A DNA stretch of 64,000 nucleotides from the NCBI GenBank assembly GCA_965220385.1, contig OZ244825.1:212769-276768 (forward strand). The letters are read 5' to 3'. Under the pieces are notes generated by a model. It was given only the letters and a program-made list of their open reading frames with translations. It searched no databases and had not been told where the DNA came from. This stretch comes from Candidatus Poribacteria bacterium (GTDB taxonomy: Bacteria > Poribacteria > WGA-4E > PCPOR2b). Numbering within the stretch: the first letter of the stretch is position 1; the number at the start of each line of letters is the position of its first letter. The position numbers and the translations under genes were made by a program. This document shows, one piece after another, positions 1 to 33,806 of the stretch.

Positions 1-59
1 AGGAAAAAACTCCAAATCCCGATCCCATCGGGAGTGGTGAGGCGAGAGGTATAAACGAT

Positions 60-527
60 ATGCTAAATCTTGAAAATGATAAACGGAACGATAAACAGGA
101 TGAAGAAATGCCTTCACTGAATCATAGTTATATCTGCCTTCAAATTCTCTGCCAGTTGCTGCAGAATGAGAAGGTTGAACCCCTACCGGAACTTACTCTG
201 GATATTGCAAATGGACTCACGCTGGATATTTCAATTTTCCCCAAGGAGCAAATACACCCAAATTTTTTCCGCGATGTCTCTAAATTTCAACAGATACCGG
301 TCTTAGCAATTGAAGTTATTTCTTCAAGTCAGACTATTGAGGAATTGCTGGAAAAGGCAGCACAATTAATACAAGCAGGAGTCAAGGCCGTCTGGACAAT
401 AGAGCCTCATAGCAGAAGTGTATTCGTGACAACCTCGTCAGAAGAAAAATTGTTCCATGACAGAATTGTTGAGAATGAGGAGATTCAAGTCGATTTCGCA
501 AAAGTATTTGGTCAACAGGCATCGTAA
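60..527 (+). CDS. Uma2/DUF820 family putative restriction endonuclease-fold protein
   Basis: PD-(D/E)xK-like segment LDISIFP...PVLAIEVISSSQ...GVKAVWTIEP; true start may be the ATG at 106. Confidence 0.8.
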   Translation: MLNLENDKRNDKQDEEMPSLNHSYICLQILCQLLQNEKVEPLPELTLDIANGLTLDISIFPKEQIHPNFFRDVSKFQQIPVLAIEVISSSQTIEELLEKAAQLIQAGVKAVWTIEPHSRSVFVTTSSEEKLFHDRIVENEEIQVDFAKVFGQQAS

Positions 528-583
528 CCTAAGAAATTTATAGTAGATTTCAGAATTAACTAGACACTGTAGCGCAAACTGTA

Positions 584-697
584 TGAAGTTTCAGAAAATA
601 ATTCGGTAATTCTATATTTTCCCCAGGCCCGGTAGGTGCGGTTTCCAACCGCACCGGCCATCGCTCGAAGATTACTGAATTAAAAAATTAATCTTCA
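584..697. mobile_element. 114-bp TA-flanked MITE (family A) carrying a GTAG-type REP hairpin (632-655)
   Basis: Imperfect terminal inverted repeats TGAAG..CTTCA, TA on both sides; closely similar inverted copy at 42600-42713. Confidence 0.75.
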
Positions 698-779
698 TAC
701 AGATGGTGGTACAAAAGACTATCTACTTTTCCTGTCTATTTGCTTTTAGAATTCACCATAGTTAGAGGACACAGCTGTT

Positions 780-1631
780 ATGGATTTCGTTCAACTTACT
801 GAAACACAACGACGAGACTTTAACGAAAACGGCTATCTGATTGTGCCTCAAGCCTTGGATCAAGATACGGTTGATCGTCTTATCGAAGGCGGTGACCGAT
901 TGATGGAATCATTTGAGTACGAAGATTACTACGCGCATCGGCGTCCCGGTCTTATCCAAGAGGAAGATGCCTACGCATCACTTATCACGAACGCAAGCAC
1001 AGTACCGCTCATTGTTCAACTGCTCGGTCCCAACATCCACATCACCAATACCGCGCTCATATATAAGCACCCACAAGCACCTGAAACGCCTGCCTTCCGC
1101 AACTGGCACCGCGATGTTGGAGTCCATCTCGATCTTGGACATCAGAAACTGCCCCGTGTCGGGCTGAAAATCGGCTACTGCTTGACAGATTTCAACGGAC
1201 CCAATTCTGGTGCAACCATGTTTGTCCGAAAAAGCAACAACCTCAGCGAGCCGTTGCCTATCCCCAAGGGCAAAGTTGACCCGCTGGAATTTGACGAACC
1301 CATCCTACGTGCTGGAGATGCATACCTATTTGAAAGTCGCCTGTATCACGCCGCTGCCCTTAATTTCACCGATCAGGTTGCCAAGGTTGTGATCTACGGC
1401 TACCACTATTCTTGGGTTAAGCAGGACTACTATCTTCGACATTATAACGGCAAGGTGCAACCGGATGCGGCGTTACTGGATAAATTGGATGACATCGGCA
1501 GACAGCTTCTCGACGCGGAGGAGGGAACTGACGGTCGTTCCGCACCTAACGGCATCCATTGGCCCCTCGCCGAATGGGCAGAACAGCACGGTGTTCTGCC
1601 GGAAGAACAGACGCATGTCGTTGAGGTTTGA
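780..1631 (+). CDS. Phytanoyl-CoA dioxygenase (PhyH) family Fe(II)/2OG dioxygenase
   Basis: F.ENGYLIV N-terminus, WHRD HxD motif, GD.YLF...HAA distal His. Confidence 0.85.
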   Translation: MDFVQLTETQRRDFNENGYLIVPQALDQDTVDRLIEGGDRLMESFEYEDYYAHRRPGLIQEEDAYASLITNASTVPLIVQLLGPNIHITNTALIYKHPQAPETPAFRNWHRDVGVHLDLGHQKLPRVGLKIGYCLTDFNGPNSGATMFVRKSNNLSEPLPIPKGKVDPLEFDEPILRAGDAYLFESRLYHAAALNFTDQVAKVVIYGYHYSWVKQDYYLRHYNGKVQPDAALLDKLDDIGRQLLDAEEGTDGRSAPNGIHWPLAEWAEQHGVLPEEQTHVVEV

Positions 1632-1670
1632 ACAAGCGTTAAACTCCCCTATAGCCCCTCCCGAAAGAAG

Positions 1671-2384
1671 TTGTCCGCCCCCATGAACAAGGAAATTTAC
1701 GTTCGTAAAATCTTCTCATCAATTGCGAAACGGTACGACTTCCTCAATTCTCTATTGAGTTTGCGACGCGATCGGGCGTGGCGGAAATTCACAGTGCGGA
1801 TGAGCGACGTGGCGCGAGGGAGCAGAGTCCTTGATGTTTGCACAGGTACCGGTGAACTCGCACTTGCATATGCCGACAAAATCGGCGATACTGCTGTAAT
1901 TGGCACAGACTTCGTTTATGACATGCTCGCCGTTGGTAAGGATAAAGTTGAAAAACAGGGGCGGACTAACGCTTTCATCCCAATTGAAGCGGATACACTT
2001 GAGCTGCCATTTTCGGACAATACTTTTGATATCGTATCGGTGGGTTTCGGTATCCGCAACGTTGCAGATCTCCGGCTCGGTATCCGCGAAATGTGTCGAG
2101 TCGCTGTGGCAAGCGGGCGGATCGCTATCCTTGAATTCACGCAGCCGACAACGCCGCTGTTTCGCCACCTTTACTACTTCTACTTCAAGGGGCTCCTGCC
2201 GTGTGTCGGAAATCTAATATCAAGGAATAGAGATGACGCCTACGGTTACTTGCCGGATTCCGTCATGCAGTTTCCTGACTGCGAACAGCTCAAGACGATT
2301 ATGGAGGAGTGTGGTCTCACGGATGTCCGATTTTACCGGAAAACCCTTGGCATTGTCGCTATCCATATTGGACGAAAAAAATGA
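1671..2384 (+). CDS. menG: Demethylmenaquinone methyltransferase (UbiE/MenG family)
   Basis: FSSIAKRYDFLN, VLDVCTGTG SAM motif, GFGIRNV, ILEF, Y.YL.DSV..FP. Confidence 0.9.
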   Translation: MSAPMNKEIYVRKIFSSIAKRYDFLNSLLSLRRDRAWRKFTVRMSDVARGSRVLDVCTGTGELALAYADKIGDTAVIGTDFVYDMLAVGKDKVEKQGRTNAFIPIEADTLELPFSDNTFDIVSVGFGIRNVADLRLGIREMCRVAVASGRIAILEFTQPTTPLFRHLYYFYFKGLLPCVGNLISRNRDDAYGYLPDSVMQFPDCEQLKTIMEECGLTDVRFYRKTLGIVAIHIGRKK

Positions 2385-3385: not shown

Positions 3386-3394
3386 GGGATAGAG

Positions 3395-3925
3395 ATGCGA
3401 TATATTTCGTACTTCTTAATAATTGGATTGTTTGTCTTCGCTTCAGTTGCTTCAAATCAAGAGGGGGTGGACGAACCGATCCAAGTGGGTGAGCAGGTTC
3501 CCGATTTCACCTTGCAAGACGCCGAAGATCAGGAACACGCACTTAAGAAGATGCGGGGTAAGGTTGTCTTTCTGATAATGGGGCATCGAAAAATCCGGGA
3601 AGAAGATGATAAGTGGGGACGCGCCTTTCAGGTAGATTATGGGGAGAACGATAGGGTTATCGCATATATTGTCGCTGATATGCGGAGCGTGCCGGCGTTC
3701 GTGCCTAAGGGCTTTATTAAAAGGCAACTCAAGAAAAATAAGCCGCCGGTAACGCTGTTACTCGATTGGAAAGGCAAAGTGCATCAGACGTATCATACGG
3801 AGAAGGAAAAGCCGAATCTCTACCTCATTGACCCCGAAGGAAAACTCGCCTTTCATACAGAATCCAACTTCGACGAGGACACCTATCAAAAGCTGAAAGC
3901 AGTGATTGATGGGTTTACTAACTAA
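3395..3925 (+). CDS. Redoxin/AhpC-TSA-like thioredoxin-fold exported protein lacking CxxC
   Basis: Signal peptide; VGEQVPDFTLQD...GKVVFL; LYLIDPEGK. Confidence 0.7.
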   Translation: MRYISYFLIIGLFVFASVASNQEGVDEPIQVGEQVPDFTLQDAEDQEHALKKMRGKVVFLIMGHRKIREEDDKWGRAFQVDYGENDRVIAYIVADMRSVPAFVPKGFIKRQLKKNKPPVTLLLDWKGKVHQTYHTEKEKPNLYLIDPEGKLAFHTESNFDEDTYQKLKAVIDGFTN

Positions 3926-3931
3926 TAACCA

Positions 3932-4132
3932 TAGGACTTACGCAGTTAAATGGTCAAATCCCTGTAGTTCGGGATTCATCGCCGCCGTTCCCAACGCCCG
4001 ATGAATCCCCGATGAATCGGGATTAAGAAACGGGCAACTACAGTAGGGTTTCAGGTTTGTAGTAGGGCGATTTATCGCCCGTCGTGACGCGCAATGAATT
4101 GCGCTGCTACAAACTGAACTGCGTAACTCCTA
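3932..4132. mobile_element. TA-flanked MITE (family B) with REP hairpins
   Basis: Ends TAGGACTTACGCAGTT / AACTGCGTAACTCCTA (15/16 inverted match); internal hairpins; related copies at 5245-5401 and 33605-33806. Confidence 0.75.
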
Positions 4133-4154
4133 TAAAGATAAGGAACGAATCAAT

Positions 4155-5244: not shown

Positions 5245-5401
5245 TAGGACTTACGCAGCCAACTGTAGGCGGGGCATCTCCGATGAATCCCCGATGAATC
5301 GGGACAGGCGGGACAGGCGGGACTCCGATAAGCCGGGAGCAGGCAGGCGGGATTCAGAGCAACTTGCCCCGCACCAACTATGCTAAAATGTGCAAGTCCT
5401 A
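5245..5401. mobile_element. Family B MITE containing an interrupted GTAG-REP
   Basis: TAGGACTTACGCA ... TGTGCAAGTCCTA ends; REP halves at 5265-5279 and 5365-5372. Confidence 0.7.
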
Positions 5402-5475: not shown

Positions 5476-6699
5476 ATGGGTGAAACTGTGCAATCCCAGC
5501 GTAACATCTTGTACCTCGATAATGGGTCTGGCATTGGTGGTGGGCAGCGCAGCTTGCTATTGCTCCTCAAACATCTGGACGCGACACGGTTTCGCTCATT
5601 CCTCGGCTGTTTGGGAGACAGTATGCTGGCAGCGGCAGCGCGAAAAGCAGGACCCCCGGTCATCCCACTCAATCTGCCGAAGCAGCACGATAAGGGGGAC
5701 AAGGCACGCCGTTTCACACTCCACGACATCGGACGCGACCTGCAACATATCACGGTAATATTTCAGCTTTTGCGGGTGCTGGAAGAACAGCAAATCGATC
5801 TCCTCCATGCAAACTCTCTGGCTGCGGGTTTAATCGGTGGGGTTGCCGCGAAACTCTACGGCGTTCCAATCGTGATGCACAAACGGTACGCCACCGCGTA
5901 TGGCCTTTTGGATCGGATCTGTGAGGCACTGCTGGATCGTGTGATTCTGGTTTCGGAAGCAACGCGCTGGAAGTTTGCTCCACCCTCGAAGCAGGCGTTG
6001 ATCTATAACGGCGTCGAACTTTCGCCACTTCAATCCTCATCGCAAGTTGAGCGTCAGCGAAATCCCGATCTAATCGGGGTTGGACGTCAGCGAAATCCCG
6101 ATCCAATCGGGGTGGAAACGCTCCGAGCGGATCTCAACCTCGATCCCGATGCAGTGCTAATTGGTATTGTAACGCGCATCACGCCGGAGAAGGGGATTCA
6201 TACCTTAATTGAAGCAACCGCCAAACTCAAAGCATCGCCCCCTATCCAGCTGCTTGTTGTGGGCGGACCTTACTTTCCCAAAGATGCGGAATATATCGAT
6301 TCTCTGAAGGCACAAGCGAAAGAATTGGGAGTCACAGATCGTGTTATCTTCACCGGCTTTCTGGAAGATACGGGTGCGATTCTATCCCTCCTCGACATTG
6401 TTCTGCTTGCGTCAACCATCCCGGAAGCCTGCCCACGCACCATCATCGAAGCGATGGCAGCCGGTGTACCGGTCATTGCCACACCGCTCGGTGGAAGCAA
6501 GGAACTGGTAACACCGGAAACAGGACTCCTCGTCCCCGCTGAGGAGGCGGACGCCTTTGCTGCAGCGATTACCCAACTTGCCGAGGATACCGAGCGACGA
6601 AAACGGATGGGAAAGGCGTGCCGCTTGAGGGCAGAGCAACTGTTCTGTGCGACGCAGAATGCGCGGTTGACTGAAGACCTCTATTTAGATCTGTTGTGA
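5476..6699 (+). CDS. Glycosyltransferase family 4 (GT-B) with in-frame repeat insertion
   Basis: GGGQRS, IYNGV, KGIHTLIEA, EACPRTIIEAMAAGVPVIAT..GG..E. Confidence 0.9.
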   Translation: MGETVQSQRNILYLDNGSGIGGGQRSLLLLLKHLDATRFRSFLGCLGDSMLAAAARKAGPPVIPLNLPKQHDKGDKARRFTLHDIGRDLQHITVIFQLLRVLEEQQIDLLHANSLAAGLIGGVAAKLYGVPIVMHKRYATAYGLLDRICEALLDRVILVSEATRWKFAPPSKQALIYNGVELSPLQSSSQVERQRNPDLIGVGRQRNPDPIGVETLRADLNLDPDAVLIGIVTRITPEKGIHTLIEATAKLKASPPIQLLVVGGPYFPKDAEYIDSLKAQAKELGVTDRVIFTGFLEDTGAILSLLDIVLLASTIPEACPRTIIEAMAAGVPVIATPLGGSKELVTPETGLLVPAEEADAFAAAITQLAEDTERRKRMGKACRLRAEQLFCATQNARLTEDLYLDLL

Positions 6700-8165: not shown

Positions 8166-8573
8166 TGACCGATGGTGCTAATTTACAGCTATTGATACGC
8201 TCCTGAAAGTGAAACGTGAACACAGTTGGTTCATTGGGTAATTAATGAACTAGTGCTCTGGCATATAAATCATGATAAGTCTCTCACGGCTCGGCTCCGT
8301 TCCGCCTGTCCCGATTTATCGGGGAGAGTCCGAGACCCCGATAAATCGGGATTCAGAGCAACTTGGATAGCCATATCCAAGCCAGCTTTGCGGCGGTGTT
8401 GTGGATTTGTCAATCCACAACGAGCAGGGGCATTAACAATTATCTGACAATGTACTAGTGAACTAATGTACTAATGAACTCTATACGACAGTCTCACCAA
8501 CTAGCATTAAAGGTTAGTAGTATCGTTGGGAAATTAGGCTTACTGCTCACGTACCACTTGCACAGGGGAGGCA

Positions 8574-9479
8574 ATGCGGACCGCACGTTTTTCACGCGGG
8601 TTCAGTGACTACCAGATCAAGATGGCGTTTATCATGCCTACCATGATTCTGCTCATCTTGATGAATATCTTCCCGCTGCTATGGTCATTGTACTTAAGCT
8701 TTCATCGTTATAAGGCTTCCATGCCGAACCGTCCGGCAAAGTTTATCGGTGTCCAGAACTACGCACGGCTACTCACCGATCCGGAGATCTGGGGCTATTT
8801 TCAGACCACCGCCTACTTTGTCGTACTTGCCGTTATCACCCAATTCATCATCGGTTTCGGGTTGGCGCTGCTCCTCAATCGCGAATTTCGATATAAGGGG
8901 CTTGTAACAACGCTGATCCTGTTACCGATGATGCTCTCACCGGTTGTCGTAGGCCTATTCTGGCGGTTTATCTTCGCGTCCGACGCGTCGGGGTTGGTCA
9001 ACTATCTACTGAGCCCGCTGTTCGGAGGACCAATCGGCTGGACGACGGACCCAAAGATCGCCATGCTCGCGGTCGTGATTGTCGATACATGGATGTGGTC
9101 GCCATTCATGATGCTGATCTCTCTGGCTGGCTTGTCCGCTATCCCCAAATATCTCTACGAAGCCGCGGATGTAGACCGCGCCTCCCGATGGTTCAAGTTC
9201 CGTTGGATCACCCTTCCCTTGGTTTCTCCCCTACTACTAATCGCACTGCTGTTCCGCACGATGGATGCCTTCAAAATGTTCGATATTGTCTACGTGCTGA
9301 CCCGCGAAGGGGGACCGGGCATAGCGACGGAAACCGTTTCAATGAATCTGTACAAGCTGGCCTTTCGGAACTATAATACCGGCAAGGCGTGTGCGATGGC
9401 ATACATACTCCTGATTATCATTGTCGCGTTGAGTAACATTTACGTGAAACATCTGAACAAGGTTCGCGGCGAGGCGTAA
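8574..9479 (+). CDS. Sugar ABC transporter permease
   Basis: Multiple TM helices, EAA loop LYEAADVDRAS.WFKF. Confidence 0.92.
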   Translation: MRTARFSRGFSDYQIKMAFIMPTMILLILMNIFPLLWSLYLSFHRYKASMPNRPAKFIGVQNYARLLTDPEIWGYFQTTAYFVVLAVITQFIIGFGLALLLNREFRYKGLVTTLILLPMMLSPVVVGLFWRFIFASDASGLVNYLLSPLFGGPIGWTTDPKIAMLAVVIVDTWMWSPFMMLISLAGLSAIPKYLYEAADVDRASRWFKFRWITLPLVSPLLLIALLFRTMDAFKMFDIVYVLTREGGPGIATETVSMNLYKLAFRNYNTGKACAMAYILLIIIVALSNIYVKHLNKVRGEA

Positions 9480-9480
9480 A

Positions 9481-10635
9481 ATGGCACAGATAGAACGCAG
9501 TAGACTTGGACATTACGTGGCACTCGCTGTAATTGCGGTGGCAGTGCTGGTCTATCTCACCCCGATCTACTGGATTGTCGCAACATCCCTAAAATCGCCC
9601 AGTGATATTATTGCGCAGGTCCCCCAATTCCTGTTTCGGGTCACCCTTGAGCATTACCAGAAACTGATGCCCGATGCAGTGCCCGGGCTCACATACGTCT
9701 TCATTGCAGAAGCGTTGATCGGTATACTCGCCTGTTTCTTACCCGTCCGAAACATGGGGATTGCCCGTCGTTTTGCATTTCTGTGGAACGGCTTGCTGAT
9801 TTTAACCTGTCTTTACGCGCTTGCGACAACGATCAACTACAATTTCCTGATGCTGTCGATTTATACGATCGTCGTCTTCCTGCTGATTTCTCCCCACAGA
9901 TCAACCGAAGCGAGACGGGTTCGCCTGTCCCTCGTCGGTGCTAGTGTATTAGCAATCGTTGCCATCTGCACACTGTTCGCGCACGGAGGATCGAAATATT
10001 TCCACCAACTGCTGAATAGCATCATCATTGGGTTTGGCAGCACCCTGCTCGCCGTTGGGTTTGGGACACTGTCTGCCTATGCGTTCTCACGCTTCAAGGT
10101 CGCAGGCAAGGAGGATCTCCTCTTCTTCATCCTCAGCACACGGATGCTTCCTCCCGTCGTCGTTGTCATCCCAATCTACCTAATGTACAGCGCACTCGGA
10201 CTGCGTGACACCCACCTCGGACTCATCCTGCTCTACACCACTTTCAACGTCTCCTTCGCAGTTTGGCTGATGAAAGGCTTCATCGACGAAATCCCGAAAG
10301 AGTACGAAGACGCCGCCCTTGTTGATGGGTATACCCGCTTTCAAACCTTCGTCAAAGTTGTACTCCCCCAATCTGTGACAGGGATCGCTGCAACAGCCGT
10401 TTTCTGTCTAATCACCGCGTGGAACGAGTTTGCCTTTGCCCTTGTGTTGACCGAAGTTGGCGGCAGGGCGGTAACCGCGCCACCCTCAATTACCAGTGCG
10501 ATCGGATCTAGCGGCATTGATTGGGGCAAGATTGCGGCTGCAACCTTCGTCTTCCTCTTGCCTGTCGCGATTTTTACTTTCCTGATGCGAGGGCACCTCT
10601 TGCGTGGCGTTACATTTGGTGCAGTGAAAAAGTAG
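9481..10635 (+). CDS. Sugar ABC transporter permease with extra hydrophobic insertion
   Basis: EAA loop EDAALVDG.TRFQ.F; about 105 extra hydrophobic residues after TLEHY. Confidence 0.9.
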   Translation: MAQIERSRLGHYVALAVIAVAVLVYLTPIYWIVATSLKSPSDIIAQVPQFLFRVTLEHYQKLMPDAVPGLTYVFIAEALIGILACFLPVRNMGIARRFAFLWNGLLILTCLYALATTINYNFLMLSIYTIVVFLLISPHRSTEARRVRLSLVGASVLAIVAICTLFAHGGSKYFHQLLNSIIIGFGSTLLAVGFGTLSAYAFSRFKVAGKEDLLFFILSTRMLPPVVVVIPIYLMYSALGLRDTHLGLILLYTTFNVSFAVWLMKGFIDEIPKEYEDAALVDGYTRFQTFVKVVLPQSVTGIAATAVFCLITAWNEFAFALVLTEVGGRAVTAPPSITSAIGSSGIDWGKIAAATFVFLLPVAIFTFLMRGHLLRGVTFGAVKK

Positions 10636-10758: not shown

Positions 10759-10787
10759 TTGATTTTGAAGGTTGAGTCTGGTATAAT
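10759..10787 (+). promoter_or_regulatory. Sigma70-type promoter
   Basis: TTGATT-17-TATAAT with TGn extension; no ORF of 60 aa or more downstream on + before 11693. Confidence 0.6.
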
Positions 10788-10794
10788 CGCTTTA

Positions 10795-11050
10795 AGAAAT
10801 GGATGCACCGCTGAAAATGATTAGCAGGGGTAAAGTCCGCAGTCGTTTTCCCACCCTTCGATGGGAGTATGTTGTGGTGTTTTCCATCTTACCAAAGTTG
10901 CCCTTCGGGGCAGTGGATAGGGCGTTGTCCACTGGAGGAGACACCGTAAGATCCCGATAAATCGGGACAAGTGTCGTTGATACCACAATTCGACCTCCTA
11001 TTGACAATGGGTGAGTATCCCCAACCCTTTAGGATGTGGGAGTACGTCAA
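10795..11050 (+). mobile_element. Non-autonomous IS200/IS605-like element, TnpB omega-RNA-like right end
   Basis: Ends with hairpin TCCCCAACCCTTTAGGATGTGGGA then GTACGTCAA; upstream nested stems GGAGG/CCTCC and GACAC/GTGTC. Left boundary uncertain. Confidence 0.5.
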
Positions 11051-11073
11051 AACATAATATGGTGGCTCATGTA

Positions 11074-11156
11074 AAAACGGAGTGCAATTACGATTAAGGA
11101 ATACAGTGGAGAGCGGGGCAAGATGCCCCGCCTACGGGTTCTATTGCACACTTTCT
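11074..11156. mobile_element. 83-bp TA-flanked MITE-like element with intact GTAG-REP (11113-11135)
   Basis: TA at 11072 and 11157; partial TIR ...GTGCAAT / ATTGCAC...; REP GTAGGCGGGGCATCTTGCCCCGC on minus strand. Confidence 0.55.
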
Positions 11157-11374
11157 TAGCATGAGCCAAATAAGAAAAATAGGCTGCTCTGGGCTTTTTT
11201 AGCGAAAAAGGTAACACGAAAAAGGGAAAAGTTACACAGGTTACGGCATACGGAATTCCGCTGAATTCCCGATAAATTGTCCGATAAATCGAGGCCAGGG
11301 GGACAGGCGGTATTTCGATACGCTCAACTACAGGTTGTCTAGCAACTTGCGTTAATTATTAGACTGATATGTCA

Positions 11375-11692: not shown

Positions 11693-12670
11693 ATGTTAAA
11701 GTTTCAGATGGCTCTGATTGCCCTCTTGATCGGTTGCGTTGCCCTCATCTCCTGCGACCAGCTAGTAGTAGAAACATTAATACCAGCGCCACCAGAGGAT
11801 GATATGCCGGACGACATGATGGTTGGCTTGCCAATGTACATCGCAATGTACACTTCGTGGACGACGAATGTTACCTATCCCGAACCTGTAGGTACCGGTA
11901 ACGTGCACGGCGAAGGGGCTCGTACTGTTTACATCAACGACGTCGGAGCTATGGCGTTGGAAGATGAAAACCTGACCGCTTACCCCGCTGGGACTATAAT
12001 TGTCAAAGAAATCATGGACGACGCGAACACGTTTGTTCAGAAAGTCGCGACAATGAAGAAGACGGACGATTCGCGCCATAACGGGTGGACATACAAGAAA
12101 TATGCTCGCACCGATGAAAACACTGACTATATGCAGGTCGGAGGAGATGGACTCCCAGACGCAGCCGAAGGGTGTCATGCCTGCCACGCTGCAGCCCCCG
12201 TGGACAGTGTCTTCGTCGATTTCTCTATGGACGGCGAAATGCCAACTGACGGCGAAATGCCAACTGATGACACAATGGCAGCAGCGTACACCTCATGGCT
12301 GAGTGCTACACTTCCCACCGCTATCGGTTCCGGTGCTGCACACGGTCAGAACGCTCGCACCATCTATATCAACGATATCGGAGTGATGGCATTGCAGGCT
12401 GGGGAGACCACTTTCCCTGTCGGGACTATAGTGTACAAGGATATCATGGATGCCACGAACACCTCTGTTGTGTTAGTCGAGAGGATGGAAAAAACAGACG
12501 ATCCGATGTATGCTACAGAGAACGGATGGCTATACAACGAGGGTAACAGTCAAGCTGGGTGTCATGGCTGCCACGCGACCGCCGGTGTGGACCCCATCCC
12601 GGGCACAGACGCTGTCTTCACTGTCCCGGCCCTGATGGCTAGCCTCGCTGCCGCTGGCGCGGGTCAATAG
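11693..12670 (+). CDS. Lipoprotein with two tandem cytochrome P460/c'-beta family heme domains
   Basis: Lipobox LISC; two homologous domains, each with H...YIN, P.GT...K(E/D), M.K, GW, CxxCH (CHACH, CHGCH), D.VF. Confidence 0.8.
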   Translation: MLKFQMALIALLIGCVALISCDQLVVETLIPAPPEDDMPDDMMVGLPMYIAMYTSWTTNVTYPEPVGTGNVHGEGARTVYINDVGAMALEDENLTAYPAGTIIVKEIMDDANTFVQKVATMKKTDDSRHNGWTYKKYARTDENTDYMQVGGDGLPDAAEGCHACHAAAPVDSVFVDFSMDGEMPTDGEMPTDDTMAAAYTSWLSATLPTAIGSGAAHGQNARTIYINDIGVMALQAGETTFPVGTIVYKDIMDATNTSVVLVERMEKTDDPMYATENGWLYNEGNSQAGCHGCHATAGVDPIPGTDAVFTVPALMASLAAAGAGQ

Positions 12671-13023: not shown

Positions 13024-13428
13024 ATGTTAAAATTTCAGATGGCTCTGATGTTCCTTCTAATCGGTTGTGTCGCGGTCATGGGTTGTAGCGACTCCGCCAT
13101 GGTGGATATGATGGGCGGTATGATGGACGACGACGACGACGATATGGACGGCATGGATGACGGCATGGATGACGGCATGGACGGCATGGATGACGGCATG
13201 GACGGCATGGATGACGGCATGGACGGCATGGATGACGGCATGGACGGCATGGATGACGGCATGGACGACGGCATGGACGACGGCATGGACGACGGCATGG
13301 ACGGCATGGACGACGGCATGGACGACGGCATGGACGACGGCATGGACGACGGCATGGACGACGGCATGGACGACGGCATGGACGACGGCATGGACGACGG
13401 CATGGACGGCATGGACGACAGTCAGTAA
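13024..13428 (+). CDS. Met/Asp/Gly tandem-repeat lipoprotein (hypothetical)
   Basis: SD AAGGAG, lipobox VMGC, leader nearly identical to that of the 11693 gene; remainder is MDDG/MDG repeats. Confidence 0.75.
   Translation: MLKFQMALMFLLIGCVAVMGCSDSAMVDMMGGMMDDDDDDMDGMDDGMDDGMDGMDDGMDGMDDGMDGMDDGMDGMDDGMDDGMDDGMDDGMDGMDDGMDDGMDDGMDDGMDDGMDDGMDDGMDDGMDGMDDSQ
13144..13419 (+). repeat. Coding tandem repeat of 9- and 12-bp units
   Basis: 7x ATGGACGGC, 6x ATGGATGACGGC, 11x ATGGACGACGGC, 1 partial unit. Confidence 0.95.
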
Positions 13429-14744: not shown

Positions 14745-14936
14745 GTTCTGTTGACACTTGGCTGTCGAGATACGGGATAAAATAATACGTAATGCGTTAT
14801 GCGTAAGAAAAAACGGGACGCAGATCTGCGTCCCCTACGAATTGCCCTCGTTGATGAAGGTTTGAGGTCGAGCAAGTCCGAGAATATCCCGTGATCGGGG
14901 CTGCCCGACCTACGGGATATCAGATATCAATACGCC

Positions 14937-16127: not shown

Positions 16128-18809
16128 GTGGCTCAAAAATATAAAGCTGTTTACTTTCCTGAACATCCAGCGGACACATCTCAGAAAAAATCGCTGACCT
16201 TGGCATTTGGTAAGAAAACAGATGAATTATACAAGTATGTTAAGGATCTTTCTAGTGCTGAACTCCGTCAGTTGCTACGGGAAGACTATCAAACCCTTGT
16301 GTCGAAAGCTGAAGCCGATGATTTACCACTAAACACCTATTGTCTTCGTCAATTAAAGCACACCGTAAACCTCATTCGGGAGCACGCTGTTCAGCTTCAA
16401 CTACCAGGCGTTGATGCAAAAACAGAATTATTTGATCCGGTAACTGTGACATTCAAGGGTGGCAAAAAAGAACCCTTTGCTCGATGGTATCCCTACTTAG
16501 AGGGATATTCCACTCAATTCGTGGAATCTATCTTAGAAAAGTATACTCCAAATGCACAGACTATTCTAGACCCATTTGCTGGGACGGGAACCACCGCCTT
16601 CACCGCATCACAACTTAATAAAACTGCTTATTTCTGCGAAATCAATCCTGTCTTGCAGTTTATGAGTTTAACAAAAATACGGGTCAGGCGATTAAAATGG
16701 TCTCAGCGTTCCGCGTTGGCTCGAGTGCTCACTCAAGCGAAGGTCTCATTGAATCAACTGGAAAAGTTCCCGCCAGATTATATCTTGCACCAAACCTACC
16801 TACAAACCTTTGGTAATAGTCTGTTTTTTGATGAGCCTGCTTATGACCAAGTTTTACGGGCGAAATCGTGGATTGATGAAGTGGCTCTTGAAAATCCAAT
16901 ATTGGCAGACCTGATTACTGTTGCAACCTTATCGGCACTTGTACCTGCGTCCCGAATGAAGCGAGCTGGTGATTTGAGATATAAAACGGATACAGAACTT
17001 GAGCGGCAAACAGTGCCACTCGCTGAAGGCATCCGCCAAAATATAGATCGGATAATTCATGATATTCGGGCTGATGTCGAAGGCCTGAAAACTGAGCCGT
17101 TGCTAATATGTGAAAACGCCCGTTCTTTAGGCGGCATATCTCCTCTTGGCATTGACGCTGTAGTAACAAGCCCTCCCTATGTCAACGGGACAAACTATTT
17201 TCGCAACACGAAGATGGAATTATGGTTCTTACGTTGTTTGAAAGAAAATAAGGATTTGAGAACATTTCGTGGAGCAGCCTTAACCGCTGGTATCAACGAT
17301 GTCACTGTTTCCAAAGCACTGTTACCATCTCACCCAGATGTTCAAAAAATCGTCTCTAAATTGGAACAGAATGCCTACGACTCCCGTATTCCTCGGATGA
17401 TTGCCAGCTATTTTAGCGAGATGACGGACATATTCCGGGCAATTCGTTCTCACTTAACCCCAGACGCGATGGTCGCGATTGATATCGGCGATTCTTGCTA
17501 TGCCGGCATTCATGTCCCGGTGGATACACTGCTGTCAGCCTGCTTGGATGAAATCGGTTTTGTTCAAGAGGATTCTGTAACGCTACGAAAACGCAAGTCC
17601 AGAGGCGGGATGTTGCTCAAACAGTCATTACTGGTTTTTAAGCCTGTTTCCAAACACAGAAGCTGCAATCCGCCCGAACAAGTTCCAGACTGGCGTACCG
17701 AATGGGACAGTTTCAAACAAAACCTACCTCATCAGAAAATCCCATTTACAAAACGGAATTGGGGGCATGCTTGGCACTCCCTATGTTCTTATCCCGGTAA
17801 GCTCAAACCTGCCATTGCACACCATTTGGTACGGACATTTGTTCCAGAAGGTGGACGAGTTCTAGATACTTTTGCAGGCGTTGGGACAATCCCACTTGAG
17901 GCGGCATTGGCTGGCAAACACGCCTACGGTTTTGAGATAAGTCCCGCTGCCTTTGCTATCGCTGGCGCAAAGGTTCGCCGCCCTACGGTGCTGGGTTGTG
18001 CGGCAGTTATTGAAACGTTAGAAGATTTCATCAGGTCCCACTCAACTACAGATGTAGAACTCGCTGAAGTGAATAACTTGGGTTTCAATGGCAAGATAGT
18101 TGAATATTACGAACCCCAAACCTTGAGCGAAATCATCTTGGCGCGTCGCTTTTTTCAAGTCCATCCGCCGAAGACTCCTGAAGAGCAATTTGTATGTGCC
18201 TCACTGCTACATATTTTACACGGCAACCGTCCCTACGCTCTCAGCCGCCGTTCTCATCCATTGACACCCTACAAACCAACGGGACCTTATGAGTATCGCT
18301 CGCTGATTGATCGATTACGTGCGAAAGTTGAGAGAGGGTTGGACGAAGGTTTGCCTGCGGATTTTCGTCCCGGCAAGATCTTCTTCCAAGATGCAACAAG
18401 CTGGTGGCCTCGAGAGGTTGATCAGTTGGATGCCGTTATTACATCTCCCCCTTTCTTTGATAGTACCCGATTTTATCTTGCAAACTGGTTACGGCTATGG
18501 TTTTCGGGCTGGTCTGCCCGTGATTTTGAAGCCTGTCCATCAGTTTTTGTTGATGAACAGCAAAAAAGCAGTTTTGATGTCTATATCCCGATTCTTCGCC
18601 AAGCGAAGGAACGGCTTAAATCGGATGGTGTGCTTGTGCTACATCTGGGTAAAAGTGTTAAGTGTGATATGGCTGCTCATTTACAGGAACTTGGTAAACG
18701 GTGGTTTCGTTCAACGGACCTTTTTGATGAAAGTGTTGCTCACTGTGAATCTCACGGTATCCGTGACAAGGGAACGGTTACCTCTCATCAGTATCTTGTT
18801 TTGTATTAG
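16128..18809 (+). CDS. Fused two-domain DNA methyltransferase, probably N4-cytosine
   Basis: Domain 1 DPFAGTG...SPPY; domain 2 DTFAGVG...SPPF. Confidence 0.88.
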   Translation: MAQKYKAVYFPEHPADTSQKKSLTLAFGKKTDELYKYVKDLSSAELRQLLREDYQTLVSKAEADDLPLNTYCLRQLKHTVNLIREHAVQLQLPGVDAKTELFDPVTVTFKGGKKEPFARWYPYLEGYSTQFVESILEKYTPNAQTILDPFAGTGTTAFTASQLNKTAYFCEINPVLQFMSLTKIRVRRLKWSQRSALARVLTQAKVSLNQLEKFPPDYILHQTYLQTFGNSLFFDEPAYDQVLRAKSWIDEVALENPILADLITVATLSALVPASRMKRAGDLRYKTDTELERQTVPLAEGIRQNIDRIIHDIRADVEGLKTEPLLICENARSLGGISPLGIDAVVTSPPYVNGTNYFRNTKMELWFLRCLKENKDLRTFRGAALTAGINDVTVSKALLPSHPDVQKIVSKLEQNAYDSRIPRMIASYFSEMTDIFRAIRSHLTPDAMVAIDIGDSCYAGIHVPVDTLLSACLDEIGFVQEDSVTLRKRKSRGGMLLKQSLLVFKPVSKHRSCNPPEQVPDWRTEWDSFKQNLPHQKIPFTKRNWGHAWHSLCSYPGKLKPAIAHHLVRTFVPEGGRVLDTFAGVGTIPLEAALAGKHAYGFEISPAAFAIAGAKVRRPTVLGCAAVIETLEDFIRSHSTTDVELAEVNNLGFNGKIVEYYEPQTLSEIILARRFFQVHPPKTPEEQFVCASLLHILHGNRPYALSRRSHPLTPYKPTGPYEYRSLIDRLRAKVERGLDEGLPADFRPGKIFFQDATSWWPREVDQLDAVITSPPFFDSTRFYLANWLRLWFSGWSARDFEACPSVFVDEQQKSSFDVYIPILRQAKERLKSDGVLVLHLGKSVKCDMAAHLQELGKRWFRSTDLFDESVAHCESHGIRDKGTVTSHQYLVLY

Positions 18810-21588: not shown

Positions 21589-21787
21589 CTATGATAGGGC
21601 ACATAGACATTTATATGATGAGTTATGTCTAATCGTAGGTGCTTGCAGCCCGCCTTTCCCGATTCATCGGGGATTTATCGGGGGCGCGGTTGCCTCAACC
21701 ATTGACCAACGATACAGGTTGAGTTGATTGTAGGTCGAGATTCATATCTCGACACTGAATCGTAAGTTGGTCGGTGCAATAAGGAGT

Positions 21788-31279: not shown

Positions 31280-31451
31280 TCGCTACATAGGTGCTCCAGT
31301 CAGCAACCGGTGGGGAACAGCTATCGTTGTTCCCTGCTGAAAGTGCCTAAGTCCCATAGAACCAAAGCAGCACTACAAGTATTTGCCCTCCCCTTGAATC
31401 AAACCGACAAACCAACGCTAACAGAAAACCTCAAGGAGTCAAATCGAACAG

Positions 31452-31661
31452 ATGTCCTCCACACTTGAGAACGAGTTAGGTGAAATCTATGAGCGGGAAG
31501 TCGAAAAACTGATCGAATCTGAGCGCAAATATCACCCAACCCTCGGAGCAGCCGACGTTGCCGCTGTTGTTCAGGCATTTCGATTTGCACTTGAACATGG
31601 AGTCGATAAAGTCACCGTCCAAATGCTCTACGATATGGTCAATGACAGGTCGGGAGATTGA
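31452..31661 (+). CDS. Small helical hypothetical protein (69 aa)
   Basis: SD AAGGAG upstream; stop 3 bp before the SMC-like gene. Confidence 0.6.
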   Translation: MSSTLENELGEIYEREVEKLIESERKYHPTLGAADVAAVVQAFRFALEHGVDKVTVQMLYDMVNDRSGD

Positions 31662-31664
31662 CGT

Positions 31665-33563
31665 ATGCGACTTGAACGTATCATCCTCAAATCTTTCGGC
31701 TGTTTTGACCGCAGAGACTTTGACCTGAGCGACGGGGTGAATCTTATCTTCGGTCCTAATTTCAGTGGCAAAAGTACGCTTGTCAATGCCATTTTCTTCG
31801 CGCTGACAGGCAAGCCGATCGTCCCGAAGGTGGGTTTGCCGGCAATGGCACAATCCGGCGCGACCAGCGGCACCGCCGGACTCAGTTTTCGCAATGGAGA
31901 ACATAGCTATCAACTGTTCCGCTCGACGCAGGGGGAAGTTCAACTCCGCCAGAAGGAAGATAATGAAAAATGGCGTATCCTCTTTACCGGCAAACGTTCG
32001 GCGGACGAAGATCTACGGCAAAAGTTCCATTTCAGCTACCACCAGCTTGCTGCAGCGACATTCCTACGCGAAGGCGAGATTTTTGAGTTCCTTGCACGGC
32101 AGCCCGCTGATCGGCGCGATGTACTACACGCGCTGCTCGGCATCGATCGGTTGATGGAGGTGCGTCAACGCTTCCTTGAAGGACGGCGTATTGCCAGGCG
32201 AGAGGAGAAGCGGATACAGGATCATCAACGCAGCATGCGGGTGACGACTGTCAAGAATCATCGTGAAGAGATTGAACGGACCGGGGCAGAGCTGAAGAAA
32301 TTGGAAGGTCAGTACGAACTGCTTACCGGTAAAGGAAACCAAAGCGGGGACGCAGCACTTGTCACCGAATTGACCCAGGCACAAGAGCGGTTCCAAAAGG
32401 AAATTGACGGACTGATCCAGGAACGGGCCACAGTTCTGAGCGGCTTCACCGATGTTGATCACCTGCGGACCTCCATCAAGGAAATTGAGGCAGCAACCGC
32501 GAGCGCGGGCGGACTGGAAAAGGGGCGGGATGAACTCATCCAACGGATCGGCAGTCTGAACAGTCAAGTCCACACCCTTACGACGGAATGCGAAACCCTG
32601 CGCCAATTGATCGACAGTGATCACGGTCACTGCCCAACCTGCCATCAGCCCGTCCAACAAAAGATCATCGAGGGCATACTTGCTGAGAAAGAGGCGGCAA
32701 AAGCTTCAAGCCAACGAGAACTTGAATCGCAGCAGAAAACCCTCGACAAACAGACTGAGAATATCAATGCCCTGCGCGGACTCAAGCAGCGACATCAATT
32801 GATGCAAGGCAAGGTCGAGCAGCTTGAACGGACCGAAAAGCAGCTTGCCAAACTCCAACGTGATTTCGATGGGATTGCCAGTCGGTTGGGCGCGCTACAG
32901 CCGGCAACACCGCCGCAAATCAGTCCGATATCCGATGCATCTGCCGATCCCGCACAGATCGCGGAGCAACGCCGCCAGCTCAAATACCGAATCGACAGCC
33001 TGCGCCGTCAACTTGACAGACTCAATAGGGAAGAAGCGGTTATTGCCCATAAACTCGAAGAACTACAGCGGGTTCAATCTCAAGCAAATCAGGTTCTACG
33101 CACCCGCCTCAGCTTTGAACTTGCCTGCGATGGCGTTGACAAGACAATTGCTTCCCTCCAACAAACTATCCTCCAACCCGCCGAAAAGGAAATCCAGCGT
33201 TGGTTGGAACGGATGGACCTCACCCGATTCTCTCAGATTGATCTCAAAAGCCAGCACCTACTCCCCTCCCTCAACGTCGAAGGCGTCGAGCGTAACCTAA
33301 TGCTCCTCAGCGGCAGCGAAAAGATGATGCTCTACCTCTGCTTCAAAGCTGCCCTCTCAGAAGCGCTAGGGACTCTCGGTTTCTTTGTCTTCGATGACCC
33401 AACCCTCCACCTTGATCCGGATCGACGCGGCGCGATGATTGACTTCATTCAGCAGCTCGCCGAAGAACATCAGGTTATCGTAACCAGCAATGACCCGGAA
33501 GTTCGCGCTGGATTGCCGGACGCACATCTGATTGAGACAACGCCACACACTTCTCATGTATAA
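31665..33563 (+). CDS. SbcC/Rad50-like SMC ATPase with zinc hook
   Basis: GPNFSGKST, coiled coils, central CPTC, LSGSEK, FVFDDPT.HLD. Confidence 0.85.
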   Translation: MRLERIILKSFGCFDRRDFDLSDGVNLIFGPNFSGKSTLVNAIFFALTGKPIVPKVGLPAMAQSGATSGTAGLSFRNGEHSYQLFRSTQGEVQLRQKEDNEKWRILFTGKRSADEDLRQKFHFSYHQLAAATFLREGEIFEFLARQPADRRDVLHALLGIDRLMEVRQRFLEGRRIARREEKRIQDHQRSMRVTTVKNHREEIERTGAELKKLEGQYELLTGKGNQSGDAALVTELTQAQERFQKEIDGLIQERATVLSGFTDVDHLRTSIKEIEAATASAGGLEKGRDELIQRIGSLNSQVHTLTTECETLRQLIDSDHGHCPTCHQPVQQKIIEGILAEKEAAKASSQRELESQQKTLDKQTENINALRGLKQRHQLMQGKVEQLERTEKQLAKLQRDFDGIASRLGALQPATPPQISPISDASADPAQIAEQRRQLKYRIDSLRRQLDRLNREEAVIAHKLEELQRVQSQANQVLRTRLSFELACDGVDKTIASLQQTILQPAEKEIQRWLERMDLTRFSQIDLKSQHLLPSLNVEGVERNLMLLSGSEKMMLYLCFKAALSEALGTLGFFVFDDPTLHLDPDRRGAMIDFIQQLAEEHQVIVTSNDPEVRAGLPDAHLIETTPHTSHV

Positions 33564-33604
33564 CTGAATCCTTCTACATTGCCACTCATTGATTCTTGTC
33601 TCGT

Positions 33605-33806
33605 TAGGAGTTACGCACTTCAGTAAGGAACAACGATCGTTTTTCCCTACGAACTGTTGATGGGACCTCTATTGTAGTTGCCCGATTCATCGGGCGTCTG
33701 TTCCGTCTGTCCCGATTCCATCGGGGAGACCAGGATTGAGAAGGGTGTTTAGCGGCGATAAATCGCCGAACTACAGGGTTTTGAACGCTCAACTGTGTAA
33801 GTCCTA
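33605..33806. mobile_element. Family B MITE, inverted relative to 3932-4132
   Basis: TAGGAGTTACGCA ... AACTGTGTAAGTCCTA; shares CCCTGTAGTTCG and CGGGCAACTACA blocks with the 3932 copy. Confidence 0.75.

Follow-up and report, generated by a model that had tools for sequence, protein, structure and literature searches.

A recurring 14-15-base hairpin in Candidatus Poribacteria is the core of tiny REP-like mobile units

We report that a recurring hairpin of 14-15 bases, CCCGAT-N{2,3}-ATCGGG, is the core of tiny REP-like mobile units of 21-85 nt in Candidatus Poribacteria, the sponge symbiont from which the 64,000-nt stretch analysed here (the window) derives. The hairpin is no constant component of any single larger element, and its units appear to have entered other repeats recently, at their hairpins, as well as ordinary genes, where they keep the reading frame; gain rather than precise loss is the presumed direction at each site. 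The explanation we prefer, to which we give an even chance, is that a single-strand HUH nuclease mobilises a REP/BIME-like family of very small non-autonomous elements whose palindromic core is this hairpin. Membership of that family is proposed as a candidate only, because no nuclease gene was seen in the 0.9 Mb sampled and a GTAG tag accompanies 13% of copies. The first-pass annotation recognised no named family; the kind, however, is a known one, being REP/BIME-like in anatomy, genome context and C^T junctions.

All 11 exact copies listed in that annotation are present (at 18, 4008, 5290, 6064, 6097, 8310, 8337, 10953, 21658, 33681 and 33711), and its chance expectation of 0.008 is matched by a composition-based value of 0.0074; dinucleotide shuffles of the window gave a mean of 0.01 matches, and none of 100 reached 11. 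Spacers of 0-1 or 4-8 nt between CCCGAT and ATCGGG do not occur in the window, and the 2-nt spacers are RA or its complement only (GA, TC and AA twice each, TT once), so the hairpin unit is asymmetric and used in both orientations. The three degenerate copies proposed earlier proved a mixed group, that at 46080 differing by one mismatch, that at 11268 being a broken pair within 11258-11310, and that at 14888 being a different small palindrome, CCCGTGATCGGGG. The reported doublets were confirmed, as a tandem pair of 33-nt units at 6064/6097, an inverted pair with 16-nt arms at 8310/8337 and a direct pair at 33681/33711. The reported satellite sequences also exist, but as unit tails rather than separate entities, GGGACAGGC being ATCGGG followed by (ACAGGCGGG)n and GGGATTCAGAGCAACTTG being ATCGGG followed by ATTCAGAGCAAC and then the target TTG.

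The motif is enriched in the Poribacteria lineage, and this enrichment is lineage-restricted. Syntenic loci (given L-numbers below) from relatives 83-97% identical to the window in nucleotide sequence, fetched without reference to the motif, hold 15 copies in 145 kb against ∼0.02 expected. Among the matches listed from a scan of 185,579 species genomes, Poribacteria account for 17 of 117 loci, and the Poribacteria loci carry extra copies. The features of the window are as follows.

14-37, minus strand: hairpin copy with a 3-nt spacer (AAATCCCGATCCCATCGGGAGTGG), a motif match of family D13, 22 nt upstream of a Uma2-family nuclease gene (60-527)
3932-4132, plus strand: MITE-1 copy A, TA-flanked, TIR GGACTTACGCAG / CTGCGTAACTCC, with hairpin 4008-4021 and half-copy 3998-4007
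5245-5401, plus strand: MITE-1 copy B, its core the 23-nt GTAG REP GTAG-GCGGGGCA-TCT-TGCCCCGC, with the GTAG and 5' arm segment from 5265
5279-5363, plus strand: 85-nt mosaic in the REP loop of MITE-1 copy B, inserted at GGCATC^TTGCCC (filled in the window, empty in L120)
6051-6116, minus strand: tandem pair of 33-nt units (hairpins 6064-6078 and 6097-6111) that keeps the reading frame of a GT4 glycosyltransferase gene (5476-6699)
8296-8362, plus strand: 67-nt composite, the inverted doublet 8310-8323 and 8337-8350 plus the tail ATTCAGAGCAAC
10953-10966, plus strand: hairpin copy topping a stem GACAC...GTGTC, inside a 290-nt well-folding non-coding region (10780-11070)
11113-11135, minus strand: empty (uninvaded) host REP GTAG-GCGGGGCA-TCT-TGCCCCGC
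11258-11310, plus strand: decayed unit CCGCTGAATTCCCGATAAATTGTCCGATAAATCGAGG...GGGACAGGCGG, families D10 and D12
21631-21711, plus strand: MITE-3-type repeat AATCGTAGGTGCTTGCA...CATTGACCAACG, within which lie hairpin 21658-21671 and a half-copy
33605-33806, plus strand: MITE-1 copy C with a direct doublet, hairpins 33674-33695 (GTAG-TT-GCCCGAT-TC-ATCGGGC) and 33711-33725 with GTCTGTTCCGTCTGT between them
46080-46094, plus strand: one-mismatch copy CCCGGTTTATCGGGG in an intergenic spacer
49153-50315, minus strand: IS630-family transposase (HTH and DDE_3, two ORFs), listed for context only

These features bear out the contexts first described for the motif, namely MITEs, REP loops and a protein gene, with the exception of an IS605-like RNA stem: region 10780-11070 (fold z -2.7, absent from the other syntenic loci compared) matches nothing in Rfam even at E<=1 and has no TnpA/TnpB close by. 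The MITE-3-type architecture recurs in L034, L045, L067 and L044, and the arrangement of MITE-1 copy C, which includes a further tagged REP (tag at 33774, minus strand), has a homologue in L123.

Six presence/absence events among relatives, found by comparing the syntenic and GrpE loci, confirm the earlier idea of a mobile or recombinogenic module and supply clean filled and empty pairs. They comprise a gain of 33 nt in the linker of GT4 (twice over in the window), 21 nt nested within such a unit, 27 nt in GrpE, 67 nt in MITE-2, and the 23-nt GTAG REP loop within MITE-1, which is either empty or holds 26, 45 or 85 nt. The 67-nt composite, which folds into a long hairpin (-20.6 kcal/mol, z -6.6), interrupts the 5' arm of the MITE-2 hairpin (8363-8383) at CTCGGC^TTGGAT; it is missing from L120 and L125, whose 341-nt spacers otherwise match the window nearly base for base. 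L125 is 94-97% identical to the window. L120 likewise has MITE-1 copy B at the same locus with the 3-nt REP loop intact, where the window carries a mosaic of TCCGATGAATC, hairpin 5290-5303, two copies of ACAGGCGGG, ACTCCGATAAGCCGGG, AGCAGGCAGGCGGG and ATTCAGAGCAAC. Three kinds of hairpin thus house units, a GTAG REP (in its loop), a second repeat (in its stem) and, when nested, the unit's own kind, as expected of something said to parasitise other hairpins. What moves is nevertheless longer than the very short module first envisaged: the 14-15-nt hairpin alone never does so, and the gained pieces are either hairpin plus tail (21, 26, 27 or 33 nt) or composites (67 and 85 nt).

The same comparisons bear on the idea, which we consider improbable, that the hairpin cannot move by itself and travels only as an internal component of TIR-MITEs (MITE-1 and others) mobilised by IS630-type DDE transposases. 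The three TA-flanked MITE-1 copies do contain four of the 11 hairpins in the window, whole MITEs are present or absent among relatives, and the window encodes an IS630-family transposase, likely the kind of enzyme that moves these TA-flanked carriers but not the hairpin units. However, the same MITE at the same locus occurs with the hairpin block in the window and without it in L120, and units of 26-33 nt without TIR or TA duplication are found in GT4, GrpE, five other genes, MITE-2 and REP loops; as a complete explanation, carriage inside MITEs is contradicted by this same-locus pair and these TIR-free units. Nor is the hairpin tied to one neighbour, its core being joined to at least five different tails or contexts.

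Copies occur in frame in seven unrelated genes, those for GT4, GrpE and five others. The GT4 units sit in an inter-domain linker and are read as RQRNPDLIGVG and RQRNPDPIGVE; orthologs have no unit, one, two, or one with the nested 21 nt, and L126 and L127 have another G/C hairpin at that position. A search for the GT4 tail, ATTTCGCTGACGC, found no occurrence outside GT4. A GTTGA/TCAAC repeat is present at both junctions of these units, the apparent repeat arising because the target resembles the 3' end of the unit. GrpE exists with and without 27 nt in proteins otherwise 96-98% identical; this intragenic 27-nt version has a 3-nt spacer and is read P-D-x-I-G. Neither the GrpE nor the GT4 target has a hairpin or homology to the unit.

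Genic copies weigh on a further alternative, in our judgement very improbable, in which selection rather than mobility keeps or remakes the motif, either because a dimeric protein binds it or because it acts in RNA as a signal for stability or termination. It is palindromic and conserved in sequence, 10 of the 13 copies in the window region are intergenic, and REPs elsewhere in bacteria are reported to bind IHF or gyrase and to stabilise mRNA. Against this, the stem is followed by no U/T tract, the motif is found in both orientations, and copies lie within other repeats as well as in frame in the seven genes. Presence and absence also differ between genomes 94-97% identical, and density ranges from 11 per 64 kb in the window to 0 per 21 kb in each of L127 and L225.

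The commonest unit, of 26 nt, is 5'-CCCGAT-RA-ATCGGG-ATTCAAAGCAAC-3' with a 12-nt tail, to which units may add modules such as (ACAGGCGGG)n, or they may pair up as doublets of 67-85 nt. A C^T breakpoint is permissible in five of the six events and is the only one possible for the 26-nt event. A left flank of C is seen in 20 of 23 unique tailed units (p 7e-10), and 19 of the 23 have a right junction compatible with C^T, flanked by T/CT (p 5e-7); the filled/empty junctions compared show no target duplication. Boundaries of the 26/27-nt units are identical across unrelated genes and repeats, and tailed units in the host REP loop have the same orientation relative to the GTAG tag in all four insertions.

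Such precision has to be set against a second account, distinctly less probable than the preferred one but the strongest of its competitors, in which spread resembles that of SDRs and uses no dedicated transposase. As DNA is replicated or repaired, sequences would pass from one folded hairpin to another by template switching, copy-choice or short-patch gene conversion, and microhomology in the CCCGAT/ATCGGG arms, together with nearby G/C-rich stems, would drive shuffling, nesting and swapping. Several observations agree with this. Orthologous MITE-1 interiors differ module by module: copy A, which holds two GTAG-tagged REPs (tags starting at 4059, plus strand, and 4110, minus strand), has other internal hairpin modules in L125 and L123, and L128 has a 42-nt spacer and no MITE. 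The copy at 18 is shared with L125, and L122 and L128 have a different segment of similar length (cctaCCCGTACAGGGct) in the same place, which makes it a replacement rather than a simple insertion. The nested 21-nt hairpin of L122, inside the hairpin of the GT4 unit, breaks C^G or G^A and cannot be placed at C^T. To these may be added the multiple tails on one core, the tandem 9-nt and 33-nt duplications, the other G/C hairpin in GT4 of L126/L127, the lack of a RAYT in the 0.9 Mb sampled, and the cyanobacterial 21-nt SDRs, which insert precisely inside HIP1 by no known enzyme. The strong, specific bias of both flanks, the exact boundaries shared by the 26/27-nt units, and the GrpE and GT4 targets that lack hairpin and homology nevertheless argue against it.

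The genome is rich in GTAG REPs, with 12 GTAG-tagged perfect palindromes in the window against 0.2 simulated, hairpin 33681 among them, and with both published REP architectures, the 23-nt S. maltophilia type and the Marinomonas type. GTAG lies within 4 nt of the hairpin foot in only 7 of 53 hairpins (13%), the C|T junction is on the strand opposite to the hairpin's own tagged orientation, and copies mostly occur singly, where REPINs would be expected as inverted doublets. No Y1/RAYT gene was found in the window (Pfam on 40 ORFs) or among the genes tabulated for the retrieved contigs with syntenic and GrpE loci, and a crude HUH...Y motif screen detected no RAYT in 0.9 Mb sampled of the ∼6.3 Mb genome. 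On the REP/BIME-like reading, a Y1 HUH nuclease of RAYT/TnpA-REP type would bind the hairpin on single-stranded DNA and cut at C|T both at the 3' end of the unit (...CAAC|T) and in the target, the strands then being joined without target duplication. Preferred targets would be C|T exposed in loops of folded repeats, notably the TC|T loop of the 23-nt GTAG REP; insertion into loops would produce nested mosaics, and carrier MITEs would spread copies further. Genic copies would persist only if their length is a multiple of three, the frame reads P-D-x-I-G and the linker is tolerant. The replacement at 18, the nested insert of L122 and the restriction of the GT4 tail to GT4 count against this reading.

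Among known systems, IS200/IS605 elements and their hairpin-ended derivatives (PATEs) share a hairpin-dependent, strand-specific logic, insertion beside a short target resembling the element's own 3' end (TCAAC in GT4), seamless empty sites, and a lack of TIR and target duplication. Unlike them, the 26/27-nt unit has one hairpin rather than one per end, the 67-nt unit has its hairpin pair inverted rather than co-oriented, the target is a dinucleotide only, and no TnpA/TnpB was seen in the window or the 0.9 Mb screen. Rickettsia palindromic elements (RPEs) and other intragenic palindromes likewise lie in frame in tolerant regions of unrelated housekeeping genes and encode a conserved peptide, but RPEs are rickettsial and ∼100-150 bp, whereas in Poribacteria 27-33 nt are inserted, encoding 9-11 aa with the core P-D-x-I-G, and the unit is far commoner outside genes. 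SDRs are reportedly sporadic in orthologous sequences and nested inside MITEs or hairpins. SDR4-6 of Nostocaceae (Elhai et al. 2008, Genome Res 18:1484), compared by description rather than sequence, are of a similar size class (21-27 nt) and insert with site precision by no known enzyme; they are reported only in Nostocaceae, and SDR5 targets HIP1 (GCG^ATCGC), rare in the window at two copies, as opposed to C^T. REP/BIME systems with RAYTs (REPtrons, REPINs) differ in that only 13% of CCCGAT hairpins are GTAG-tagged at the foot, the usual unpaired end being the 12-nt tail (reverse complement GTTGCTTTGAAT), and in that the Poribacteria copies are mostly singlets, insert into the loops of other REPs and are accompanied by no RAYT in 0.9 Mb; Poribacteria are not among the phyla described, and our literature search found no paper tying them to REP/RAYT systems. 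The likenesses are nonetheless extensive: both are short palindromes with G/C stems, present in many dispersed copies that lie mainly outside genes, with mosaics, doublets, no target duplication and occasional in-frame genic copies, the last also reported as REPs or palindromes inside genes of Opitutus terrae and R. conorii. On single-stranded DNA, RAYTs cleave at a CT dinucleotide on either the 5' or the 3' side of a REP (PMC8266576), and E. coli TnpA-REP cuts TGCC|TGAT (PMC3333891); the C^T position of the Poribacteria junctions is the one at which these nucleases cut. The GTAG palindromes of the window include both the S. maltophilia type (GTAG, 8-bp stem and 3-nt loop, 23 nt; PMC8266576) and, with stems of 5-6 bp and a TTYA loop, the Marinomonas type (5-bp stem and TTTA loop, 2 nt from GTAG; PMC8266576). 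If this kinship holds, the hairpin units add a new family to a type of bacterial selfish DNA that is already known.

All 11 exact copies of the hairpin CCCGAT-N2-3-ATCGGG that the first-pass annotation had placed in the window, at 18, 4008, 5290, 6064, 6097, 8310, 8337, 10953, 21658, 33681 and 33711, are present, against an expectation of 0.01 in dinucleotide shuffles and 0.0074 from base composition. No hairpin copies with spacer lengths other than 2-3 nt were found in the window. Since the 2-nt spacers are only ever RA or its reverse complement, the hairpin unit is asymmetric, and both of its orientations occur; among the few window copies orientation shows no clear bias relative to transcription. 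Nine of the 11 are intergenic, the exceptions being 6064 and 6097, and in 345 kb of Poribacteria DNA 40 of 53 copies lie outside long ORFs; L127 and L225 represent lineages with few hairpins. Of three sites previously called degenerate, two stand, a near-copy with one mismatch at 46080 and a decayed hairpin pair at 11258-11310, but 14888 is a different palindrome. It lies in a 192-nt spacer between ABC ATPase and GFO/IDH genes (14745-14936) that is common to the window, L001 and L125 but measures just 7 nt in L120, L121, L122 and L127 (L-numbers denote the other loci retrieved); the spacer is an inserted repeat with a GTAG REP (GTAG-GGGACGCAG-AT-CTGCGTCCC) as well as this small palindrome.

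When the 53 copies are oriented, they share the consensus C-CCCGAT-RA-ATCGGG-A, which is followed by one of several tails.

Tail classes of the oriented hairpin
ATTCAAAGCAAC
ATGCAAGCACCTACGATT
CAACTACA, the reverse complement of the GTAG tag
(ACAGGCGGG)n
ACTCCGAYAAGCCGRG...

The tail found in the glycosyltransferase gene GT4 is present at that locus only. Folded as single-stranded DNA, the hairpin core is predicted to form a 5-6-bp stem of -4 to -7 kcal/mol. The repeats that carry the units, and the genes concerned, are as follows.

Carrier repeats and related genes in the window
3932-4132, MITE-1 copy A, with TIR and TA duplication
5245-5401, MITE-1 copy B, with TIR and TA duplication
33605-33806, MITE-1 copy C, with TIR and TA duplication
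8363-8383, hairpin of MITE-2
5476-6699, GT4 glycosyltransferase gene
49153-50315, IS630-family transposase gene

Evidence for mobility came from eight loci syntenic to the window (within L120-L128), retrieved via the glycosyltransferase, with a mean nucleotide identity to it of 83-94%, or 94-97% for L125. The GT4 linker reads QVETLR in empty orthologs and Q-VE-RQRNPDPIG-xE-TLR where one 33-nt unit is present; at the DNA level, empty CAAGTTGA^AAC becomes filled CAAGTTGA[GCGTCAGCGAAATCCCGATCCAATCGGGGTTGA]AAC. Only the window has two units, and L122 has one unit plus an extra ACPDEIG, encoded by 21 nt (GCCTGTCCCGATGAAATCGGG) nested inside the first GT4 hairpin. In the spacer between the SBP and permease genes, 67 nt (8296-8362, an inverted doublet plus ATTCAGAGCAAC) are present in the window and missing from L120 and L125, the rest of the 341-nt spacer being near-identical among the three. 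Between TsaE and GT4, L120 has a minimal TA-flanked MITE with the core GTAG-GCGGGGCA-TCT-TGCCCCGC, and the window has an 85-nt mosaic (5279-5363) in the loop of that REP. The same 23-nt host REP is empty at 11113-11135 of the window, in L044 and in L120, holds a 26-nt unit in L123 and, at the identical position, an unrelated 45-nt insert in L055; L068 has a similar 26-nt-filled copy with a variant 3' arm. The spacer between AhpC and AIRC contains an orthologous MITE with differing internal modules in the window, L125 and L123, and lacks the MITE in L128. The hairpin at 18 is common to the window and L125, with another short palindrome in its place in L122 and L128. Finally, a metagenome scan for hairpin plus tail found a GrpE gene, named Candidatus Poribacteria by NCBI, that carries the unit in frame; its relatives are 96-98% identical elsewhere and differ by exactly VALNPDLIG, or 27 nt.

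The pieces gained are 21, 26, 27, 33, 67 and 85 nt long, and among these filled and empty sites the hairpin was never seen to move without a tail. In REPINs the replicating unit is an inverted doublet, and in BIMEs an alternating array. Here the 67-nt inverted doublet was gained as one piece, with a predicted fold into a single extended hairpin (-20.6 kcal/mol, z -6.6), and singlets of 26/27 nt have also been gained; 33681 and 33711 form a direct doublet. Gained units of 21, 26 and 27 nt are nested in MITE-1, MITE-2 and REP loops. The copies are thus polymorphic in presence among relatives and are not all fixed within one larger element, and the idea of a mobile module that invades other hairpins is in part borne out by the filled and empty sites, with two amendments: what moves is the hairpin with its tail, and it belongs to a known kind of repeat.

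Tailed units also occur in frame in genes for a CysG-N-like protein, an integrase, an anti-sigma factor, an IS630 transposase and a membrane protein, as well as GrpE. In every case these have the 3-nt spacer, and thus a length of 27 nt, and the frame is always the one in which the palindrome translates as P-D-x-I-G, whichever its orientation; hairpins with 2-nt spacers are overwhelmingly non-coding. Selection on length and frame explains this N2/N3 dichotomy. A different G/C hairpin occupies the same GT4 position in L126 and L127 (10520-10639), a G/C-only micro-hairpin CCCCCCCGC-TG-GCGGGGGGG that encodes PPRWRGG, and the CysG-N-like gene at 451-1803 of L222 has PPRGQGGWG and PPARGGDKGGG stretches beside VALNPDEIG. 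Because of such stretches in the GT4 and CysG-N-like genes, several hairpin families may be inserting in frame in these genomes.

For six events we enumerated all permissible breakpoints. A C^T junction is permissible in five (TTCAAC^TTGCGA, CTCGGC^TTGGAT, GGCATC^TTGCCC twice, and CAGCC^TCT) and is the sole possible breakpoint for the 26-nt event; only the nested 21-nt event does not allow it. Of 23 unique tailed units, 20 have C on the left (p 7e-10) and 19 have a right-hand junction compatible with C^T (p 5e-7). A stricter rule of TTG after the unit fits only 8 of the 23, leaving C^T alone as general. No target duplication was found at the unit junctions, the TCAAC "repeat" in GT4 being present because the target resembles the 3' end of the unit. 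These junctions suggest that strands are broken between C and T, as in cutting by RAYT (TnpA-REP) nucleases, which bind REPs as single strands and cleave at a CT on the 5' or 3' side of the hairpin (PMC8266576, PMC3333891); the E. coli enzyme cuts TGCC|TGAT (PMC3333891).

REPs themselves are abundant in the window, with 12 GTAG-tagged perfect palindromes compared to 0.2 in Markov-2 simulations (maximum 1). The tag is found on 12 of 32 perfect palindromes, control tetramers scoring 0-8, of which the highest, TAGG (8), is GTAG one base along. The two classes of GTAG-tagged palindrome, including the hairpin at 33681, match the REPs of Stenotrophomonas maltophilia (GTAG, 8 bp and a 3-nt loop, 23 nt in all) and Marinomonas (a 5-bp stem with a TTTA loop, 2 nt from GTAG) (PMC8266576). 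Directly adjoining the IS630-family transposase gene, a 114-nt unit is perfectly duplicated in tandem (50400-50631), and each of its two copies holds a GTAG REP, GTAG-GGGCGGGG-TTT-CCCCGCCC.

From the sequence comparisons, the best-supported reading is that the unit represents a REP/BIME-like family mobilised by a putative single-strand HUH nuclease that cuts at C|T. This enzyme would favour loops in other folded repeats as targets, and MITEs would carry the units secondarily. A serious rival is that units spread without a transposase, by a template-switching process like that of the small dispersed repeats (SDRs) of Nostocaceae, which have no known enzyme. It gains its weight because no RAYT was found, few hairpins are tagged and two events deviate. 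No Y1/RAYT (PF01797) gene occurs among the 40 window ORFs searched with Pfam, none in the gene tables of the syntenic and GrpE-locus contigs retrieved, and none in 0.9 Mb screened crudely by motif; a GTAG no more than 4 nt from the foot is present in 7 of 53 CCCGAT hairpins (13%), the rest having other tails, and in the window tags just one of 11 (33674-33695); and one event is off the C^T rule and another is a replacement. A related and, in our judgement, improbable proposal is that the 26/27-nt hairpin plus tail is a RAYT-independent, self-propagating element, the Poribacteria counterpart of SDRs, which would invade C^T sites laid bare in folded DNA with the help of a host nuclease or repair pathway, or of a nuclease family so far not linked to repeats. 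Were that so, it would rank with the smallest mobile DNAs known and would generate 9-11-aa P-D-x-I-G insertions in symbiont proteins.

The window comes from a Poribacteria chromosome. When a single genome from each species was scanned with the 14-mer CCCCGATRAATCGGG, at least 117 loci were listed, 17 of those listed being in Candidatus Poribacteria MAGs; most of the loci are chance singletons, and they give no census of copy number. Several of these MAGs have more than one locus among the matches listed, with extra hairpin copies there, and this supports an enrichment of the hairpin in the lineage. In metagenomes, 71 of 96 matches to hairpin plus tail are not the unit: about a dozen lie in one conserved gene, and ten belong to a distinct repeat of ~300 nt, found in a single metagenome (Ga0247739; L137, L158, L160, L166, L167, L169, L170, L176, L189 and L211). 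This repeat, from another organism (GC 0.42-0.47), contains ATCCCGAT-GCAAAGCGA-ATCGGGATTCAAAGCAAC, and a 46-nt palindrome is nested in the loop of its hairpin in at least three of the ten copies (L166, L167, L176), with a shorter related insert in L137; it has the same nesting behaviour as the Poribacteria unit and an 18-nt string in common with it. Every metagenome locus is single-copy and without arrays, which argues against hairpin plus ATTCAAAGCAAC being a CRISPR repeat, and all four viral-contig matches lack the hairpin and are chance matches, which argues against phage carriage.

The hairpin at 10953 caps one stem of a strongly structured 290-nt non-coding region (10780-11070; -98.5 kcal/mol, z -2.7). 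The annotation of this region as an IS605-like RNA could not be sustained, as neither an IS605 omega-RNA nor another known RNA finds Rfam support there even at E<=1; at gathering thresholds Rfam gives no hit anywhere in the window, which also has no tRNA or tmRNA. The structured region has no copies in the other loci, is missing from all syntenic relatives, and could represent an unknown RNA or a relic of some inserted element. Beside the hairpins, the genes at 8574-10635 code for ABC permeases rather than for TnpB or a transposase. Other features of the window are these.

Other features of the window
60-527, Uma2-family gene for a putative PD-(D/E)XK endonuclease, which the window, L122, L125 and L128 have and L120, L121, L123 and L126/127 lack; two of the four loci having the gene also have a hairpin 22 nt upstream of it
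13024-13428, 134-aa ORF made almost wholly of 9/12-nt tandem repeats (ATGGACGACGGC / ATGGATGACGGC) encoding (M-D-D-G / M-D-G)n, whose first ~77 nt, ribosome-binding region included, are a duplicate of the beginning of the cytochrome P460-like gene at 11693
16128-18809, gene for a protein of 893 aa that contains two N6_N4 DNA-methyltransferase domains; L121 and L125 have the gene, whereas L120, L122, L126 and L127 lack it
33827-34525 and 35626-37107, paralogous genes of unknown function about 2.1 kb apart, 73-88% identical in blocks that include a signal-peptide-like start

The spread of REP-type repeats in vivo is still described as poorly understood, RAYT activity being known from assays in vitro (PMC8266576). 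Related uncultivated genomes offer natural before-and-after pairs with exact junctions that match the in vitro RAYT cut (C|T), and show 21-27-nt units gained, nested within loops of other REPs, and placed in frame in housekeeping genes (GrpE, the glycosyltransferase and others). Because many complete Poribacteria chromosomes exist, a genome-wide catalogue of events could test the RAYT model or reveal another mechanism. The repeats also serve as markers of variation between strains of an abundant sponge symbiont, and they account for length polymorphisms in its proteins.

Among known systems, SDRs are described as restricted to Nostocaceae, SDR5 inserting within HIP1 (GCG^ATCGC). Like the units reported here, those described are dispersed, 21-27 nt long, sporadic in orthologous sequence and nested in larger repeats, but on the basis of their descriptions, rather than their sequences, the present units are set apart by a Poribacteria host and a C^T target. 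A cyanobacterial origin (HIP1/SDR/Nezha) does not fit a Poribacteria lineage in which HIP1 occurs only twice in the 64-kb window. PATEs, hairpin elements derived from IS200/IS605, have co-oriented subterminal hairpins at both ends, a fixed tetra- or pentanucleotide target and a cognate TnpA, whereas here there is a single hairpin, or inverted hairpins in the 67-nt unit, a target of C^T only, and no TnpA seen in the window ORFs, the retrieved loci or the 0.9-Mb screen. MITEs of the IS630 type have TIR and a TA target duplication, and the hairpin units have neither. The palindromic elements documented inside genes as RPEs resemble the genic copies, but are a feature of Rickettsia. Among the papers searched, none connects Poribacteria with REPs or RAYTs. 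The closest likeness is nevertheless to REPs: the units are short (21-33 nt), palindromic, dispersed and mainly extragenic, in-frame REPs inside genes are already documented, and the junctions at C^T without target duplication resemble RAYT cutting, although most CCCGAT hairpins lack a GTAG tag at the foot of the stem. The unit is REP-like mobile DNA, in a new variant from an uncultivated phylum.
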